Assembly (NCBI GenBank): GCA_965199495.1
Contig: CBDASK010000003.1
Coordinates: forward strand, 3,584,001 to 3,648,000
Origin: Abditibacterium sp.
Lineage (GTDB): Bacteria > Armatimonadota > Abditibacteriia > Abditibacteriales > Abditibacteriaceae
Direction: 5' to 3'
DNA length: 64,000 nt
Shown here: positions 10,086 through 32,102 of the stretch, piece by piece
How the letters are laid out: every line of letters starts with the position of its first letter
How positions within the stretch are numbered: position 1 is the stretch's first letter
Program-made: the position numbers and the translations under genes
The notes under the pieces: generated by a model
Seen by the model: the letters and a program-made list of their open reading frames with translations, nothing else
Databases searched by the model: none
Told to the model about the DNA's origin: nothing

Positions 10086-11906
10086 TTAACTTTGCGCCTC
10101 CAACTCAAACCAGAATTCGCTGCCCTGACCCGCCTCGCTCTTAACTTGAATTTCGCCGCCGTGCGCGCCGACAATCGTCCGCGAAATCGGCAAACCTAAC
10201 CCCGCGCCGCCGCCCGTGGCGCCTGGCACTTGCACGAAACGCTCGAATATTCGATCCAAGAACTCGGCGGGAATGCCCCCGCCTTCGTCTTTGACGCGGA
10301 ATACGACTTTGCCCGCCTCAACGTCCTGTGCCTCGACGATAACGGTTCCTTCGTTGGGCGAATGGCGCACGGCATTATTAAGTAAATTCAGCAAAACGCG
10401 CCCGATTTGCACGCGGTCGGCGCGCACGAGCGGTAAATCGGCGCGTGAAAACGTTTGGATTTGCACGCCCTTGCCGCGAGCAGCCACGGCGACATCGTGA
10501 GCGGCGTTATCAATTAATTCGCGCGGCGCGATCCACTCGAAACGCGGCGGATTGGCGCCCGCTTCCATGCGCGTCAAATCCAATAAATCGCGCAATAGAG
10601 CGTCGAGGCGCAGCAAGTCTTCGCGTTGCGCCCGCACAACTTCCATTTGATCGGCTGTGAGTTCTCCAACCGCGCCTTCTTCCAATAATTGCGCGCTCAG
10701 CAAGAGCGAAGTCACCGGCGTGCGCAGTTCGTGCGAGGCGACGCCGATGAATTCGGTTTTCATGCGGTCGAGCGACTGCAAATGTGTCACGTCTTCCAGC
10801 ACAGCGGTGGCGCCCAAAACTGTTTCATCGTCAATCATTGGCGTGGCGCGCAGACGATAAATGCGTTGCGTATCGCCGCTCTCGATTGTCACCAATCCTG
10901 CGGCGCCTTCTTCGGCGGAGGTTTCGCGTGAGACGATGGCGCGCTCGATAGCGCCCACGATTTTCGGTTGGTCTACTGCTTTAGCGAGCGGCATTCCGGC
11001 CAATTTCGACTCCGGCCCGAATAAGCCCTGCGCGGCTTTGTTCAAATGAACGAGGGTGCGCGTCGCATCGGTGACTAAGACGGGATCGAAGAGATTTTCG
11101 AGCGCGGCGTCGGACATTTTCTGCGCGCGATGCAGACGCAAATCCTGATCGCGTTTGGCTTCGCGCAGTTTGGCGACCATATCGTTGAAGGTACGCGCCA
11201 ATAGTCCGATTTCGTCGTCGCGCCGCAGTTCGATAGTGCGATTGAGATGTCCCGCGCCGACCTGTTCGGCTTCCATCGCGAGCGCCATCAGTGGCGTCAA
11301 AGCCAGATTGACGGCGCGGCGCGCGAACCAGATCGCCAAGCCGAGCGCCACGAGCGTGAACAGCGCGCCCAGCCACGCCGCCTGACGCGCATCGCGTTTG
11401 GCGCGCGCGTCGGCGCGCAGAATCGCGTTTTGGTTCAAGTCCAAAATCCGCTGGGCGCGCGCTTTGTTGGCGCGAAACAATGGCTCCAGTTCGGCGAAGT
11501 AGAACGCGCTGCCATTTTTCTTGTCGCCACGAAGCAGCGCCTCCGTTTGATTGCGATAACGTTCGTAACCGCGCGCCAGTTCGTCGGCGGTTTCGCGTTC
11601 GTCGGCCTCGGTAATATTGGCGCGCTCAGCCTTGAGCGCGCCCTGAAAAATCGGCGTATTGCGCTCGAACTGCGCGCGCGCCTTTTCTCTTTGCCCGGCC
11701 AGATAAAACGTGGCGGCGCTATCCTGCCGTTCGAGCGCTTCTTTCATGGTTTGGGCGACAACGACGCTCTGGTAGTTGTCGCGAAAGATGCGATCAATGC
11801 TGTTGCCCAGCCGCAGGAAATTGACGACCGCGCCCGCCATCATCAGCGCCATCAGCGCGACGAGCGCGAGGTGCGAGCCGAATAATTGGGTGCGCAGAGA
11901 TTTCAT
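10086..11906 (-). CDS. Sensor histidine kinase (2 TM, helical sensor, HAMP, PAS-like, HisKA, HATPase)
   Basis: DEIGLLARTFN (HAMP), ASHELRTP H-box, NLLNNAVRH, DEGGGIP, GAGLGLPI. Confidence 0.93.
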   Translation of the reverse strand: MKSLRTQLFGSHLALVALMALMMAGAVVNFLRLGNSIDRIFRDNYQSVVVAQTMKEALERQDSAATFYLAGQREKARAQFERNTPIFQGALKAERANITEADERETADELARGYERYRNQTEALLRGDKKNGSAFYFAELEPLFRANKARAQRILDLNQNAILRADARAKRDARQAAWLGALFTLVALGLAIWFARRAVNLALTPLMALAMEAEQVGAGHLNRTIELRRDDEIGLLARTFNDMVAKLREAKRDQDLRLHRAQKMSDAALENLFDPVLVTDATRTLVHLNKAAQGLFGPESKLAGMPLAKAVDQPKIVGAIERAIVSRETSAEEGAAGLVTIESGDTQRIYRLRATPMIDDETVLGATAVLEDVTHLQSLDRMKTEFIGVASHELRTPVTSLLLSAQLLEEGAVGELTADQMEVVRAQREDLLRLDALLRDLLDLTRMEAGANPPRFEWIAPRELIDNAAHDVAVAARGKGVQIQTFSRADLPLVRADRVQIGRVLLNLLNNAVRHSPNEGTVIVEAQDVEAGKVVFRVKDEGGGIPAEFLDRIFERFVQVPGATGGGAGLGLPISRTIVGAHGGEIQVKSEAGQGSEFWFELEAQS

Positions 11907-23827: not shown

Positions 23828-24115
23828 TCAAAAATCGGCGCTTAAATCGCGCCTCTCTACATTCATTCCGTCAATCAAACTTTCTTTTTTAACGCGCGAC
23901 CATTTTTTGATTTGCTTCTCGCGTTCGATAGCGTCACGCACATCGCCGTATATTTCGTAATACATCAGACGATCAACGTTGTATTTTTCGGTAAATCCCT
24001 GAGTGCATTTATTTTTGTGCTGATCTATCCTACGAACTAAATTACTGGTAACGCCAACATACAGCGTGCCAGTAAAGCTACTGAGAATATAAACATAATA
24101 AGTGCGTTCTCGCAC
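23828..24115 (-). CDS. GIY-YIG nuclease family protein (about 95 aa)
   Basis: YYVYIL...LYVGVTSNLVRRIDQHK...FTEKYNV...AIEREKQIKKWSR; GTG start inferred. Confidence 0.92.
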   Translation of the reverse strand: MRERTYYVYILSSFTGTLYVGVTSNLVRRIDQHKNKCTQGFTEKYNVDRLMYYEIYGDVRDAIEREKQIKKWSRVKKESLIDGMNVERRDLSADF

Positions 24116-24158
24116 GGTGTTACTAATTTGCTTTAATTGCTTAATTATTACGGCATCG

Positions 24159-24322
24159 GCGTTATCACGCAAGGCGCCCACATTGTCATTTCGAGCTTGG
24201 CGAGAAATCTTACGGCCCCGCGCCAGCGGAAGTCAAAAGTCATTTCAATTTTCGCTGCCGCGATGGCGTAAGATTTCTCGCCAAGCTCGAAATGACAATG
24301 TGGGCGCCTTGCGTGATAACGC
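24159..24322. repeat. Family B1 palindrome, right of GIY-YIG, with a 24-bp outer arm extension
   Basis: GCGTTATCACGCAAGGCGCCCACA + core + TGTGGGCGCCTTGCGTGATAACGC. Confidence 0.92.
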
Positions 24323-26671: not shown

Positions 26672-27070
26672 TTAGCGGCGAATTCGGTTGTCGTCCTTAC
26701 CGTTGCCGCCGACCAACGCCGTGGCTAACGCATTCACTACCGAAAGAACCAACGCGCCAACCAGCGCCGCGCCAAAATTAGAAACGTTGAAGCCCTTGAC
26801 CGCAGCAGCCACGGCGTAGAACATCAGGCCGTTGATGAGCCATGACAGAATCAGGCTCCACAAACCTAACGTCAGACACGAAAGCGGGAGCGTCAAGGCT
26901 TGCGCGATAAATTCCAAAATCGGCTTAATAACCGCGTTGACCAATCCCAAAATCAGCGCCGCGATGAGAGCGTCGCCGATGCCGTTGACCGAAATCGCGC
27001 CGCCCGACAAATTGGCGATGCCGATGAGCGCGAGCGCGCTGATAACCAGCCGAATCAAAAACGAAAACAT
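26672..27070 (-). CDS. Phage holin family (YvlD-like) membrane protein
   Basis: LGLVNAVIKP...LTLP...TLGL...ING. Confidence 0.85.
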   Translation of the reverse strand: MFSFLIRLVISALALIGIANLSGGAISVNGIGDALIAALILGLVNAVIKPILEFIAQALTLPLSCLTLGLWSLILSWLINGLMFYAVAAAVKGFNVSNFGAALVGALVLSVVNALATALVGGNGKDDNRIRR

Positions 27071-27191
27071 GAGACAACGACGCGCAGGGCATTTAAGCGT
27101 GAGCGTCAAGCGCAAAGTATAGCGGGCGATTGGAGGCTTCATCTCAGCGAAGCGCGACAAGGGGAAAGGACGCGATAAACTTCCGCGCTGG

Positions 27192-30100
27192 ATGCAAACT
27201 GTTCTCGCCGCTTATCTCATCGAACTCGCGCTCAAACGCGCCAACCCGCTTTCGACCGACGAACTTTCGCTGCGCGATGCGCTTTCCGACTTGCTCAACC
27301 AATCGGCGAAAGAGTTGGGCAAATCGGTTCAGTTCGTCGGCGAGGCCAAAGTTATCGCGCAGGGCACGCGGCCCGATTACATCATCGCGCGCGGCGATTT
27401 GCCCATCGGCTACATCGAAGCCGAAAAATATGGCGCCGACCTCGCCAACCTCAAAGGCCACGCCAAGAAACAGAACGACGCCTTTATCGCCGACCTCGAT
27501 AACTTTCTGCTCACCAATCATCTCGACAATCGCCTTTAGAATAAAGGCGATTGTGTCGCATCTGTTACTTTTCCCGCCGATCCGAAACTTCTGACCGACG
27601 CTCATGCGGCGGCGTGGCTGGCGTTGTGCGAACGGATGCTCGCGGGCGAAATCCAGACGATTGCCACGCCCAAAGATTTGGCGATTCTGCTGTCGCGGCG
27701 CGCGCGTTTGCTGGCGGGCGCGGCGCTGGCCGATTTGGGCGTTGACGACGAAAGCCCGGTTGACTTCGCCTACGCCCAGTTCAAGGCCGAGCTTTTGACC
27801 GACATTGATAAGGCCGAATTCGCCGACGTTTATGCCGAAACTTTGACCTACGGTTTGTTCGCCGCGCGCTGTCTGAGCGACGACAAATTCACCGTCGCCA
27901 GCGCCGACCGCGCCTTGCGCGAGATTCCCCTGTTGTCGTCGCTGTTCCACGATTACGAATTCCGCATAGACGACAACCTGCGCTGGATTCTGGACGAAAT
28001 CGTCGCGCTGCTCGATGCCGCGCCGATTGCGGGCATCACCGATTACTTCGCCAACCGCAGCGGGCGCGCCGACCCGATGCTCGACTTTTACGAGCCGTTT
28101 TTGGCCGCCTTCGACCCGCGCAAACGCGAGGCGCGCGGCGTCTATTACACGCCCGAACCCGTCGTCGGCTACATGGTGCGCAGCGTCGCCGCGCTATTGG
28201 AACGCGATTTTAATCGCAAAATTACCGATAAAGAAGTCCGGGTTCTCGACCCAGCCACGGGCACCGGCTCGTTCTTGTTCGCCGTGGCTGATGAGATCCA
28301 TCGCCAGATCGTTGACTTCGACGCGGCTTCGTGGAACGCCCAAACGGTCGAGAATACGCTCGCGCGTTTGTTCGGGTTGGAACTGATGGTCGCGCCTTAT
28401 ACCATCGCGCATCTCAAGTTGCGCCTGCAATTCGGCGCCTGGGGCACGCCGCCCCGCAGTCGCGTCGGGATTTATTTGTCCAACACGCTCGACGACCCGC
28501 GCGGCAATTATGGCGGCACGGTCGAAATGGTGAAAGAGCTTAAAACCGCCGATCAAATCAAAAGCGAAACCGAGATATTAGTCGTTATCGGCAATCCACC
28601 TTACGCTGGTCATAGCGCCAACGTCACCAAACGCGAGGTCACCGAGAACACGAGCGGTGCCATCTTGCGCAAAGGCAAAGCGGCTTCTTATTCTGAGAGT
28701 CGTGTTGTCACCAAACACAACGAAGTTGGCGCTCGCGTCGAGAGTTATAAATTTGTTGACGGCGTGAAATTGAGCGAACGCAATCTGAAGTGGTTACAAA
28801 ATGATTACGTGAAGTTTTTAGCATTCGCGCAAAACCGTATCGCGCGCACTGGAGAGGGCATCGTGGCTTACATCACAGATCGCGGCTATCTCGACAACTC
28901 GACTTTTCGCGGTCTACGCGCCAATTTGATGGATGAGTTCGACGCTTTGTATGTCCTCGATTTGCATGGTAGTGCCAAGAAAAAAGAGAAGTCGCCTGAT
29001 GGGAGCGCCGACCAAAACGTCTTTGCGATTCAGCAGGGAGTCGCAATTTTATTAGCTGTCAAAACCAAAGGTTCGAGCGGTGCGCGCGCCTCGGTTTATC
29101 ACGCCGACTTGTGGGGACGCAAAAAAGAAAAGGAAGACGCTCTTGGTGCTAACGATGTCTTGACGACGGCTTGGCAAACTCTAACGCCCAAAGCCCCGCA
29201 TTATCTGTTTTTGCCGCGCGACGAAACCCATCTGGAAGAATACAAACAAGGCTGGAAAATCACCGATGTTTTCAACCAAAATGGCGAACCTGCACCTGGC
29301 TTTGTTACGACGCAAGATCAATTTGCCATTTCATTTTCCGCCGATGAAGCCAAAACCAAAGTTAAATCATTATTGGCATCCAAAGACGAAACCGACGCCC
29401 GCAAGCTCTTTCGCTTATGTTCGCAAGATCAATGGAATTACGCTAACGCTAAACGTGATCTGGCCGTTCAAAACTGGGAATCAGAAGTCATCCCCGTTCT
29501 CTACCGCCCTTTCGATACTCGCTGGACAATTTGGAATTCCCACGTCGCCGTCCATCGCCGCGAGCGAGTTAATAAACACATGATTCGCACAAACAACATC
29601 GCGCTTTGCACGGTTCGCGGCTTGGAAACACCAGATTTTGAACACGTTTTTGTTTCCGATATCGCAATGCAACATCACACAGTTTCAATCAAAGAAGTCA
29701 ACTATATTTTCCCACTTTATCTCTACGTAGAACCCAAATCTCCGACGAAAGAACAAACCGGAACTCTCGCTGAACTTGATTTGGAATCGGTCGGTCTGGA
29801 AAAGCGCGCCAATCTCAACCCGAAGTTCGTCGCGGCCATCACGTCCATCGTCGGCGTGGCTGCTTCGCCGGAAGCGATTTTCGATTACATCTATGCCACG
29901 CTGCATCGGCCCGACTATCGCGCGAAATATGCGGCGTTTCTCAAAACCGATTTTCCGCGCATCCCGCTCCCGCGCGATGGCGAGCAGTTCGAGGCGTTGC
30001 GTTCGTTGGGCGCGCGGCTCGTCGCGCTGCATTTGCTCGATGAGAAGCGCGCGCCCGCGCTCGCGCAGTCGCCGTTCAAGCCGGTCGGCGAGGGTGATAA

Positions 30101-30356
30101 CATCGTCTCCGGCGCGCGCTATGACGAGGCCGAGCAGACGATTGGTTTCAACGCGACGCGCGGCTTCGCGCCGGTTTCGCGCGCGGTGTGGGAGTTCAAA
30201 ATCGGCGGTTATCAAGTCGCCAAGAAATGGCTCGACGACCGCAAAGGCCGAGCGCTCGAATTCGAGGAGTTGCAGCATTACGCGCAAGTTTTGGCCGCGC
30301 TGCAAGGCACGATTGAGGCGATGGCGGCGTTGCAATCGTTGGCGCGTGAGGGATAA
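27192..30356 (+). pseudogene. Single-polypeptide restriction-modification enzyme (Type IIG-like, ISP-type C-terminal specificity domain) interrupted by one in-frame TAG at 27537-27539
   Basis: ORFs 27192 and 27624 share a frame; RPDY...GYIEA nuclease-like motif, GVYYTP, DPATGTGSF, GNPPY, YRPFD, DFPRIP, IGGYQV. Confidence 0.8.
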
Positions 30357-30500
30357 ACCCCCGCACCTGCCGATTCTCAAGCAATCTTCGCCTAAATTGA
30401 ACGTGAAACCGCGCGAATGTTCATCAGTCCGCGACGACTGTTTATCCGCTTTATAATTAACCGAAAATGTTCGCGTCTCAAACTTAAACGCGAACAAGGC

Positions 30501-30540
30501 AAAAGGGCACCAAGAGATTGATTTCTCTTGGTGCCCTTTT
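30501..30540. terminator. Bidirectional intrinsic terminator
   Basis: AAAAGGGCACCAAGAGA-TTGATT-TCTCTTGGTGCCCTTTT between convergent genes. Confidence 0.85.
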
Positions 30541-30557
30541 ACTTGCGAGGCCAAAAT

Positions 30558-32102
30558 CTAATTCGCGCCGAGTTTCCGTTTGGGAATCGCGGCTTTAATC
30601 GGCTTTTCGATGGATTTGACCGGCGCGATTTTCGATTGCACTTTTTTGGGCGTCGGCGCGGGCGTTAATTCCGGTTTATCCGACGCGGGTTTCGGCGCGA
30701 CAACCGGCGAGGCGGTCGGCGTGGCTGCTGTTGCGGGCGTTGTTGTGTCGGCGTCTGTTGCGGTTGGCGTCTCGAAGGGCAGGGCGCTGACGCGGTTGGC
30801 GTCGATGTCGCGGCGGCGCAGGGTTTTCAAGTCGGCCAGCACGTTGGTGAACTGGCCTACAATCGCATCGAGTTTGTCGTCGCCGGTCTGGGCTTCGTAG
30901 ACCTCGATTTCGCCCAGCGAAACCGCGCGGTCGGAGTTGACGTTGGGATCGGCGTTGGGCAAAACGATGCCGGGGCCATTGGCCTGAAACACGAAACGCG
31001 CGTATTTGGCTTCGACCGGCGTGAACTTGAAATCCTGATTGACCGGCTCGTTTTTCAGGTTGAACACGCCCGCCGTTTTCCACGGGCCGGTCGAATAGCT
31101 GCCGTTGGTGACCTGCAATTCGACGCGGCGCGCCCAGCGCAAATCGCTCTGGTTGGAAGTCGGATTGAGCGTGACTTTACCCAACAAATGCGTGCGGTCG
31201 TTAGCGAAACCGACGGTGACGAACTCTTTGCCCGGCTCGAAACCCTGCGACGCCCAGCCGTTGGAACCCTTGTTTTCCAACGGGCGAAAGTTATCGCCGT
31301 CAATCAGTAGGTTGGGGCCATATTTCGGGTCGTTGTCATAAGTCGAGGACGAGGCCATGATCTGGCCGCCGTTTTTGGCCGCCGCGATGTTGACGTTCGC
31401 GCCCGCTTTCGTTGTGGCGTTGGCGCTCACAGTTTGAAAAGCCGCGCCGCCTTCGGCCTGCAATTTCTTGTAGGCGTTGAGTTGGGTGACGGCGTTCTCG
31501 AAACGATTAATCACGCCGCCCATTGGATCGGCATTGCCGATGGCTTCATAAATCTCGACCTCGCCCAGAGCCACGGCGCGGTCACTGCCATAATTCGAGC
31601 GAAACATCAACTTCACGAAACGCGCGTCAGTCGGCAGAATGTCGAAGCTCTGCGGCTCGCCTTTCTGCTGCAATGTCAGTTGGGCGACCGGCAGATACGG
31701 GCCTTCGGCGCTGTCGGTCGAGACCTGCACTTCGACATCTTTGACCCAGCGTTCGGGCGGCAAGTCGTTGGTCGGGTTAATCACGATGCGGCCCAACTTC
31801 ACGATGCGATTGCCCGCGAAACCCAGCGTGACCGAATCCATCGCAATCGGATCGTAGCTGTTGGAAGCCCAACCGCGCGAACTTTTGGGGCGCGCCGAGT
31901 TATAGACCTGTCCGTCAATCAAGTTGGACGCCGCGTAAAGCGGATCGTTATTGAAGGTGGAAGTGGAGGCCAGCACGCGCCCGCCGTTGGCGGCGGCGGC
32001 GATGTTGGTGATGTCGGTTGAGGTCGCGCGATTCTGGGCGTGAGCCGCAAAGCCGACCGCGCCCAGCGCGGCGAGCGCGATCAAAGAAGTTTTGGAGTGC
32101 AT
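30558..32102 (-). CDS. Secreted protein with two discoidin/F5-8 type C-like domains and a Pro/Thr/Lys-rich tail
   Basis: Signal peptide; internal duplication NIAAA.NGG...LIDG...GWAS...SDRAV.LGE.E.YEA. Confidence 0.75.
   Translation of the reverse strand: MHSKTSLIALAALGAVGFAAHAQNRATSTDITNIAAAANGGRVLASTSTFNNDPLYAASNLIDGQVYNSARPKSSRGWASNSYDPIAMDSVTLGFAGNRIVKLGRIVINPTNDLPPERWVKDVEVQVSTDSAEGPYLPVAQLTLQQKGEPQSFDILPTDARFVKLMFRSNYGSDRAVALGEVEIYEAIGNADPMGGVINRFENAVTQLNAYKKLQAEGGAAFQTVSANATTKAGANVNIAAAKNGGQIMASSSTYDNDPKYGPNLLIDGDNFRPLENKGSNGWASQGFEPGKEFVTVGFANDRTHLLGKVTLNPTSNQSDLRWARRVELQVTNGSYSTGPWKTAGVFNLKNEPVNQDFKFTPVEAKYARFVFQANGPGIVLPNADPNVNSDRAVSLGEIEVYEAQTGDDKLDAIVGQFTNVLADLKTLRRRDIDANRVSALPFETPTATDADTTTPATAATPTASPVVAPKPASDKPELTPAPTPKKVQSKIAPVKSIEKPIKAAIPKRKLGAN

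Follow-up and report, generated by a model that had tools for sequence, protein, structure and literature searches.

A stop codon within a short hairpin points to a possible loop-flip switch in restriction-modification genes of Abditibacterium

A Type IIG-like restriction-modification (R-M) gene in the 64,000-nucleotide stretch of Abditibacterium DNA analysed here (the window; genome G000, 4.8 Mb in 3 contigs) is interrupted by one stop codon that lies inside a perfect hairpin, and inversion of the hairpin loop would reopen the reading frame. Hairpins with the same CGCCTT...AAGGCG core recur in unrelated R-M genes, and both ON and OFF states are found among relatives. The device is real and recurs, and when all mechanisms are taken together a programmed ON/OFF switch is its most likely nature. 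The more specific reading, that the hairpin at 27526-27554 belongs to a set of reversible ON/OFF micro-inversions in R-M genes which are started by a nick and finished by template switching, is in our judgement evenly poised. The features concerned are the following, with positions counted in the window.

27192-30356, plus strand: Type IIG-like single-chain R-M gene (nuclease, m6A methyltransferase, specificity domain), 1054 codons with one interruption
27192-27539, plus strand: frame of the OFF state, 115 codons, incomplete nuclease domain
27372-27425, plus strand: putative nuclease catalytic motif P61-D62...E76-A-E78, in which E replaces the usual K
27526-27538, plus strand: left hairpin arm (13 bp), whose outer part codes for N113 where homologs have F
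27531-27536, plus strand: left CGCCTT core, a motif common to sites elsewhere
27537-27543, no strand: 7-nt spacer TAGAATA with inner arms of 2 and loop GAA (27539-27541); it holds the TAG, and its flipped form codes for Y-S
27542-27554, plus strand: right hairpin arm (13 bp), from the inverted-repeat search
27544-27549, minus strand: CGCCTT core of the opposite strand (AAGGCG), a motif common to sites elsewhere
27624-30356, plus strand: downstream open frame with the methyltransferase and specificity part, start at TTG 27624 or ATG 27636, a candidate product only upon restart
28248-28604, plus strand: methyltransferase motifs DPATGTGSF to NPPY (Pfam N6_Mtase)
29292-30323, plus strand: Type ISP C-terminal specificity domain (Pfam PF18135, 5e-78)
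30501-30540, no strand: 17-bp hairpin with A/T tails 3' of the gene, likely a two-way terminator

The initial annotation had described a perfect 13-bp repeat around GAA that contains the only stop of the frame, and recomputation bore this out: the TAG at 27537-27539 is the sole stop between 27192 and 30353. Folding of the hairpin as single-stranded DNA gave -13.7 kcal/mol (z -6.4), and none of 200 shuffled sequences folded equally well. Since about 370 hairpins with arms of at least 13 bp occur in the genome, most of them terminator-like, the hairpin by itself is unremarkable; it is the coincidence with the stop that is remarkable. Genome-wide, 82 candidate same-frame stops between two coding-like stretches were found, most of which are ordinary gene junctions. 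Arms longer than 5 bp were present only at 27526-27554 and at one other R-M site among these candidates, selected by a filter that missed a third R-M site. No intrinsic terminator was called at the hairpin on either strand, no promoter-like match was found in 27000-27800, and no simple-sequence-repeat tract or frameshift occurs at the site. A Logan contig from run X1 (depth 50, 3941 nt) matches 26993-30600 with 0 differences. X1 is perhaps the source sample, so an assembly slip is excluded as far as visible, yet X1 does not count as a second strain. The contig carries the OFF orientation only; the two loop orientations were not seen together in this sample at the level of the contig, from which rare variants get dropped. 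Among the variants listed for runs X3 and X4, none falls at the loop.

When read through the stop as X, the frame matches the PADLOC model REase_MTase_IIG across residues 14-1042 (3e-213). Pfam places N6_Mtase and Type_ISP_C in the same frame, and full-length homologs have about 1020-1090 amino acids. D62 is kept in 118 of 120 homologs and E78 in 119; we take the P61-D62...E76-A-E78 stretch to be a variant of the PD-(D/E)xK motif, and DPATGTGSF and NPPY are assumed to be the methyltransferase motifs. The sequence at 27417-27425 is E-A-E instead of E-x-K in 119 of the 120 homologs, which describes a whole IIG subfamily with PD...ExE. Assignment as a Type ISP enzyme was rejected: the Pfam search of the protein revealed no helicase family between nuclease and methyltransferase, and LlaGI and LlaBIII align only from residue 296 onward.

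The nearest solved relative of the host protein is DrdV (PDB 7lo5). A model of the N-terminal part of the same-genus ortholog from genome G011 (mean pLDDT 87), compared with the 143-residue nuclease chain of DrdV, gave a TM score of 0.76 by target (E 2.4e-3). The stop falls in strand 112-117 of this model, before strand 120-126 and within the nuclease domain, so the 115-residue OFF peptide would be an incomplete nuclease domain. The flip thus truncates the nuclease domain and very likely silences the whole fused enzyme. The earlier idea that the stop separates the nuclease from the methyltransferase proved not to be clean, the break being in a strand inside the nuclease domain. Similar to DrdV, a Type IIL/IIG enzyme, the protein has an N-terminal nuclease, a helical linker, an m6A methyltransferase and a C-terminal recognition domain and lacks a helicase (bioRxiv 10.1101/2021.01.06.425610; PDB 7lo5, 7lvv). 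Unlike DrdV, to which identity by structure is about 20%, it has an E-x-E motif, and the accessible part of the DrdV preprint mentions no switch (bioRxiv 10.1101/2021.01.06.425610). The X3 and X4 contigs join 27073 to 30552 and 27128 to 30565, respectively, and the DNA upstream of the G011 copy differs, which together indicate that the gene is a mobile single-gene insert. A gene for a GIY-YIG domain protein, flanked by housekeeping genes, is located on the minus strand at 23828-24181 of the window.

Relatives of the host protein show what the uninterrupted gene looks like. Homologs had been forecast to carry an aromatic residue at the position of the stop and F in place of N, and both forecasts hold in the alignment of 120 homologs: every sequence has an aromatic residue at position 116 (Y 72, W 33, F 15), and position 113 is F in 117 sequences, W in 2 and N in 1. 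The G011 ortholog (88% identity, 1121 nt) has identical arms and reads CTT TAT TCC AAA, or L-Y-S-K, with TAT TCC where the window has TAG AAT. Reverse-complemented, the window spacer reads TAT TCT A, one synonymous base away from G011. In P0127, an intact relative of 1033 amino acids, the site reads A-F-R-L-Y-S-K-G-E, and the G001 sequence (66%) reads D-F-R-L-Y and has no hairpin. The proposal that loop inversion restores the open frame thus finds support in L-Y-S-K of G011 and R-L-Y-S-K-G of P0127, and the opposing case of a simple TAY-to-TAG change with AAT kept does not fit the sequences of the relatives. The predicted TTC loop allele was not seen in DNA; at the amino-acid level G011 agrees with it, holding the synonymous TCC. 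As TCC would flip to TGG, which is not a stop, the G011 copy should be unable to switch off.

Codons 110-115 and 118-122 are identical between the window and G011, and in the homolog alignment no insertion is needed to form the hairpin. P0127 already has the residues that code for the core and not yet those of the outer arm, which suggests that the site arose by substitutions, presumably with F113N as the last. With A-F at 112-113 and K-G-E at 118-120, a hairpin in another pairing register (residues 111-121) is possible in P0127. The protein P0123, from a different strain, ends at the same residue 115 as the window product. In a tree of residues 1-110 (8 rows) it groups with the open G011 allele, with the window sequence outside (98/94 and 97/95). 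If the end of P0123 is a true stop, the loop has flipped at least twice on this tree; the end may instead be a contig edge. Further copies of the window site numbered 0 in metagenome contigs, 1 in genome contigs and 0 in viral contigs, and a protein-based metagenome scan for the window gene returned 3 distant loci.

The hairpin has sisters in the same genome. When the whole genome was searched for hairpins that, once flipped, would connect two long open stretches, 3 of the top 4 contained CGCCTT-N7-AAGGCG. Exactly three sites of this form exist in G000, and all of them lie in R-M genes and have a stop that the flip removes. The hosts, each in the OFF state, are the IIG gene of the window, a two-domain specificity subunit and an IIG-like methyltransferase. 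The second site is found between the halves of the specificity subunit, behind a nuclease-methyltransferase fusion and in a different frame, and the third in the methyltransferase gene, next to a PLD-helicase. For all three an open relative agrees with the flip: the counterpart of the second site is P0197, which reads A-L-S-Y-K-A (a protein-level match), and that of the third is a syntenic ortholog in G004 which reads R-L-V-K-Q-G and carries the exact inverted base. Across 26 family genomes, the specificity gene of the second site had no DNA ortholog that spans the hairpin, and a viral-contig scan with its protein gave 0 matches.

OFF hairpins with arms of at least 8 bp and at least 100 codons on each side number five in G000, and the core is common to three. 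The plain count of CGCCTT-N7-AAGGCG (3) is not above that of other spacings (0-7), so the signal resides in the symmetry, the host gene and the stop. Allowing up to one mismatch per arm gave 33 more matches in G000, 0 of them with a flip-removable stop, and only 3 of 9 N6-methyltransferase loci in this genome carry a site. The third gene has a second stop, a TGA near codon 88 without a matching hairpin. It also contains about 100 extra in-frame residues of REP-like repeats (L026, about 11270-11580) which are absent from the G004 ortholog; beside these repeats, the ORF at L026 7732-8235 presumably resembles a REP-associated transposase and has no Pfam match. At L025 8330-8360, an 8-T run is present where the stop of the nuclease-methyltransferase overlaps the TTG start of the specificity subunit.

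The core was then fixed, before the count, for the 12 other genomes of the genus, with spacers of 5-10 allowed. These genomes are kin and not independent draws. They contain 148 core sites, 21 of which are self-complementary (inner arm of at least 3, loop of 1-4; counted by eye, with perfect palindromes excluded). At thirteen of the 21 the flip makes or removes an in-frame stop of an R-M gene; 7 of these sites are OFF and 6 ON, distributed over six genomes and all three frames. By comparison, a simulated random site of the same build toggles a stop at a rate of 0.11, and R-M genes make up, as a rough estimate, ~1% of such a genome. The genes hit encode Type IIG enzymes, Type I methyltransferases and Type III Mod proteins (two assigned by homology). 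At 7 of the 13 toggling sites the loop is a single base, and the flip there equals one transversion. Of the remaining 8 sites, one adjoins the start of a methyltransferase gene, three toggle frames of other kinds (an 89-aa ORF and two genes for putative secreted proteins), and four lie clear of any gene.

Alignment of the sites defined the motif further. Its fixed part ends with CCTT, the following base is free, and the inner arm is self-complementary. When only CCTT was kept constant and the spacer set to 9 nt, 28 matches resulted, and 9 of them, all in the genus, were self-complementary as compared to 0.4 expected; CG precedes CCTT on both arms in 8 of these 9, and the outer C is present in 41 of 42 arms that were selected on GCCTT. 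A fixed 7-nt spacer was dropped as a rule once forms of 8, 9 and 10 nt had been found beside the 7-nt one, and many stems have only 9-10 bp. Most stops at the sites are TAA, and the same 21-mer is found in four unrelated genes and in two frames. The homolog of the third gene in G003 is OFF at the same codon by means of a different, 8-nt spacer, with two adjacent changes needed, and another G003 homolog has no hairpin, which argues for convergence.

R-M sites are absent from six of the 12 other genus genomes, the nearly complete G009 and G012 included, and the 18 class genomes outside the genus yielded one stop-bearing site with a shorter inner arm, in the G016 homolog of the window gene. Among 401 phylum genomes, GCCTTGT-N3-ACAAGGC matches in 6, and in the 4 that lie outside the genus the frames appear to be due to chance; viral-contig scans with two full motif forms gave 0 and 0. 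A core site at L122:6010 ends 2 bases before a methyltransferase ATG, where the flip alters no codon and could instead affect a promoter or ribosome site. The 89-aa ORF at L060:8020-8292, without Pfam match, is ON and has a 16-bp stem, in which a 19-mer is identical to that of the G004 methyltransferase. An FkbM-family methyltransferase gene in a polysaccharide-type cluster (L133:5101) is OFF via a site that lacks one outer C. Self-complementary core sites at L119:3396, L123:6056, L138:4974, L139:5044 and L144:4943 either closely precede genes for large secreted proteins or fall within the part that codes for the signal peptide, and these sites near secreted-protein genes are possibly a second site class.

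Template switching at a quasi-palindrome, to which the initial annotation had appealed, would account for the inversion; the arbitrary arms that go with it are not what is found, as the CGCCTT...AAGGCG core recurs in many unrelated R-M genes. Ordinary template switching offers no explanation for this recurrence, and a sequence-specific trigger enzyme is likely. We propose that a host enzyme would nick immediately 3' of CGCCTT, after which the freed 3' end would pair with the AAGGCG arm of the displaced strand and copy the spacer backwards. The copied end would re-anneal via the 2-4-bp inner arm, and replication would sort the daughters into ON and OFF. The outcome would be inversion of a loop of 1-4 bases, by which an in-frame stop is made or erased. 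A nick after CGCCTT combined with fold-back copying would explain the fixed core, the free self-complementary inner arm and the 7-10-nt spacer. The purpose, we infer, would be bet-hedging of restriction and methylation.

The lead candidate for the nicking step, put forward tentatively, is a chromosomal type IB topoisomerase. The pox enzyme cuts after (C/T)CCTT (PMC2666729). The present sites are similar in that their fixed part closes with CCTT on each strand, the two copies pointing towards one another, and differ in that G precedes CCTT where pox has C/T. Among bacterial enzymes the known site preferences are weak at most: the Pseudomonas topoisomerase has a modest preference for the pox site, the Deinococcus enzyme is reportedly without a CCCTT preference, and the accessible part of that article mentions no role in switching (PMC2666729). 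The G000 enzyme retains the equivalents of pox Q69, Y70, Y72 and R80, and K133 is not retained. Of 27 family genomes, 21 have a gene for this topoisomerase, whether they carry sites or not, and because of this family-wide presence the distribution does not discriminate. It is conceivable, though doubtful, that one host enzyme, plausibly this topoisomerase, flips 1-4 bases across an R-M regulon and some surface-related genes, which would be a new form of phase variation in which cells rearrange their defence and methylome by means of the smallest invertible element known.

The main rival is enzyme-free template switching during replication, with CGCCTT selected repeatedly as a good pause or fold-back sequence that fits common codons (R-L, A-L, K-A, G); we consider it unlikely. 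Flip-flop spacer inversion is known from yeast genes, with arms of more than 9 bp and 2-5-nt spacers (PMC8604942). The variation of spacer length from 7 to 10 would suit such a process, as would the result that no recombinase gene was found adjoining any site when the three G000 tyrosine recombinases were used as queries and the loci were examined. However, many GC-rich hexamers are equally common in G000 and should do as well, whereas each long-armed toggling hairpin found in R-M genes had the CGCCTT core, and the many stems of 9-10 bp are at the lower limit in yeast.

A site-specific recombinase or HUH nuclease that exchanges the loops of an extruded cruciform from arm to arm is improbable. 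A fixed facing motif, as found here, is typical of recombinase sites, and G000 encodes 7 serine recombinase matches. The core site of a tyrosine recombinase is a fixed 6-8-bp overlap between two binding elements, and such a site was rejected, as spacers of 7, 8, 9 and 10 nt contradict a fixed overlap; they are also too short for pairing two recombination sites. The distribution of two solo tyrosine recombinases roughly tracks the sites (13 of 13 genus genomes, all 4 of genus g5, 2 of 10 other family genomes), but a different palindrome is conserved upstream of them in G000, G011, G004 and g5, and the GC-skew turn is close to one of the two, which gives them the look of an Xer pair. Because the pair appears to have a site of its own, it was set lower as the flipper. 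The motif that precedes this divergent pair, AACCTGTC-(A/C)AAT-N3-ATTG (L141, L156, L157, L153-L155), likely represents the dif-like site of a non-canonical Xer system. At L140:470-1381, amid ordinary genes, lies a gene for a solo integron integrase (TIGR02249 above cut-off); this enzyme was likewise set lower, since it was not found in G004, G009 and G010, which bear sites.

Quite improbable is a one-way mutational sink, in which the hairpins would be hotspots that disable costly R-M genes and the OFF alleles young pseudogenes that rarely revert. As such a sink would have it, the G000 sites are OFF in all three cases, N113 stands where F is nearly invariant, and the X1 contig lacks the ON form. 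Further damage is present in 2 of the 8 fully readable OFF R-M genes, namely the third G000 gene and the gene in G006, which has a frameshift near its start besides the OFF site (two more genes have assembly gaps); the other six readable OFF genes, however, show no other break, and six of the test sites are ON. Comparison of the window with G011 gave dN/dS values of 0.22 upstream and 0.11 downstream of the stop (dS 0.43), indicating purifying selection on both halves of the gene. A sink also leaves unexplained why the sites are built to give stops, in three frames and at an amino-acid cost (13 of 21 against the simulated rate of 0.11), and as the flip leaves the perfect stem unchanged, the back-flip should be equally easy. 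Of the two options considered at the outset, a reversible switch is favoured over a one-off inactivation. It is barely credible that the stop stems from an error in sequencing or assembly, or that it is read through and the hairpin acts as an RNA signal, for although hairpins can disturb sequencing and all data are metagenome assemblies, the independently assembled X1 contig is identical base for base, an artefact would not single out R-M genes or stop codons, the stops are mostly TAA, and relatives carry the inverted DNA.

If the loop-flip switch is true, R-M genes of this group that annotation lists as pseudogenes would be turned off rather than dead, and defence inventories and methylome predictions would have to include the loop state. 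A flip of 1-3 bases resembles a SNP, and tools for invertons or repeat tracts are unlikely to report it. A motif of six bases, suited to all reading frames, would be a compact and testable device. Should a nicking enzyme drive the flip, it would link a sequence-specific enzyme to programmed template switching, which would be a new kind of system if the enzyme is found, and bacterial topoisomerase IB may then gain a defined job in a genetic switch.

Known phase-variable R-M systems include mod genes with simple-sequence repeats and hsdS shufflons such as SpnD39III. The switch proposed here would share with them the heritable random switching of restriction and methylation, and Type I, IIG and III genes are all hit; in contrast to them, there is no repeat tract or exchange of whole target-recognition domains, and one small device is found in many loci. 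Intragenic invertons of the premature-stop class (Chanin et al., PMC10028968) are similar in that an intragenic inverted repeat is present, its orientation sets whether a full protein or a stop results, and the variation is read as bet-hedging; the present repeats are likewise intragenic, and the orientation of the spacer alters the product. The known invertons are long enough for an invertase, as in BT0375, where 57 bp are inverted, and 7-bp flips were set apart as enzyme-independent (PMC10028968). The present flips change 1-5 bases, their repeats are fold-back hairpins, and a single core of six bases is used across a gene class.

Spacer inversion by template switching is described for perfect arms of ~9 bp or more with 2-5-nt spacers and leads to parallel, reversible flips (Abraham and Hazkani-Covo, PMC8604942; Lavi et al., PMC5941160); the yeast study left out genes with premature stops (PMC8604942). 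The resemblance extends to the arm length, the short spacer and a perfection of the arms that changes amino acids, as in F113N. It extends also to the alleles, which are exact reverse complements at the third site, differ from this by one synonymous base at the window site, and correspond at the protein level at the second site. In the accessible parts of these reports the arms are arbitrary, with no targeting of a gene class and no shared motif (PMC8604942, PMC5941160), whereas the arms described here are not independent of sequence, one core being dominant. Full-text searches, with subscription papers mostly outside their coverage, found no description of a loop-flip switch marked by a motif. 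What is new here is the use of short stems with one shared motif.
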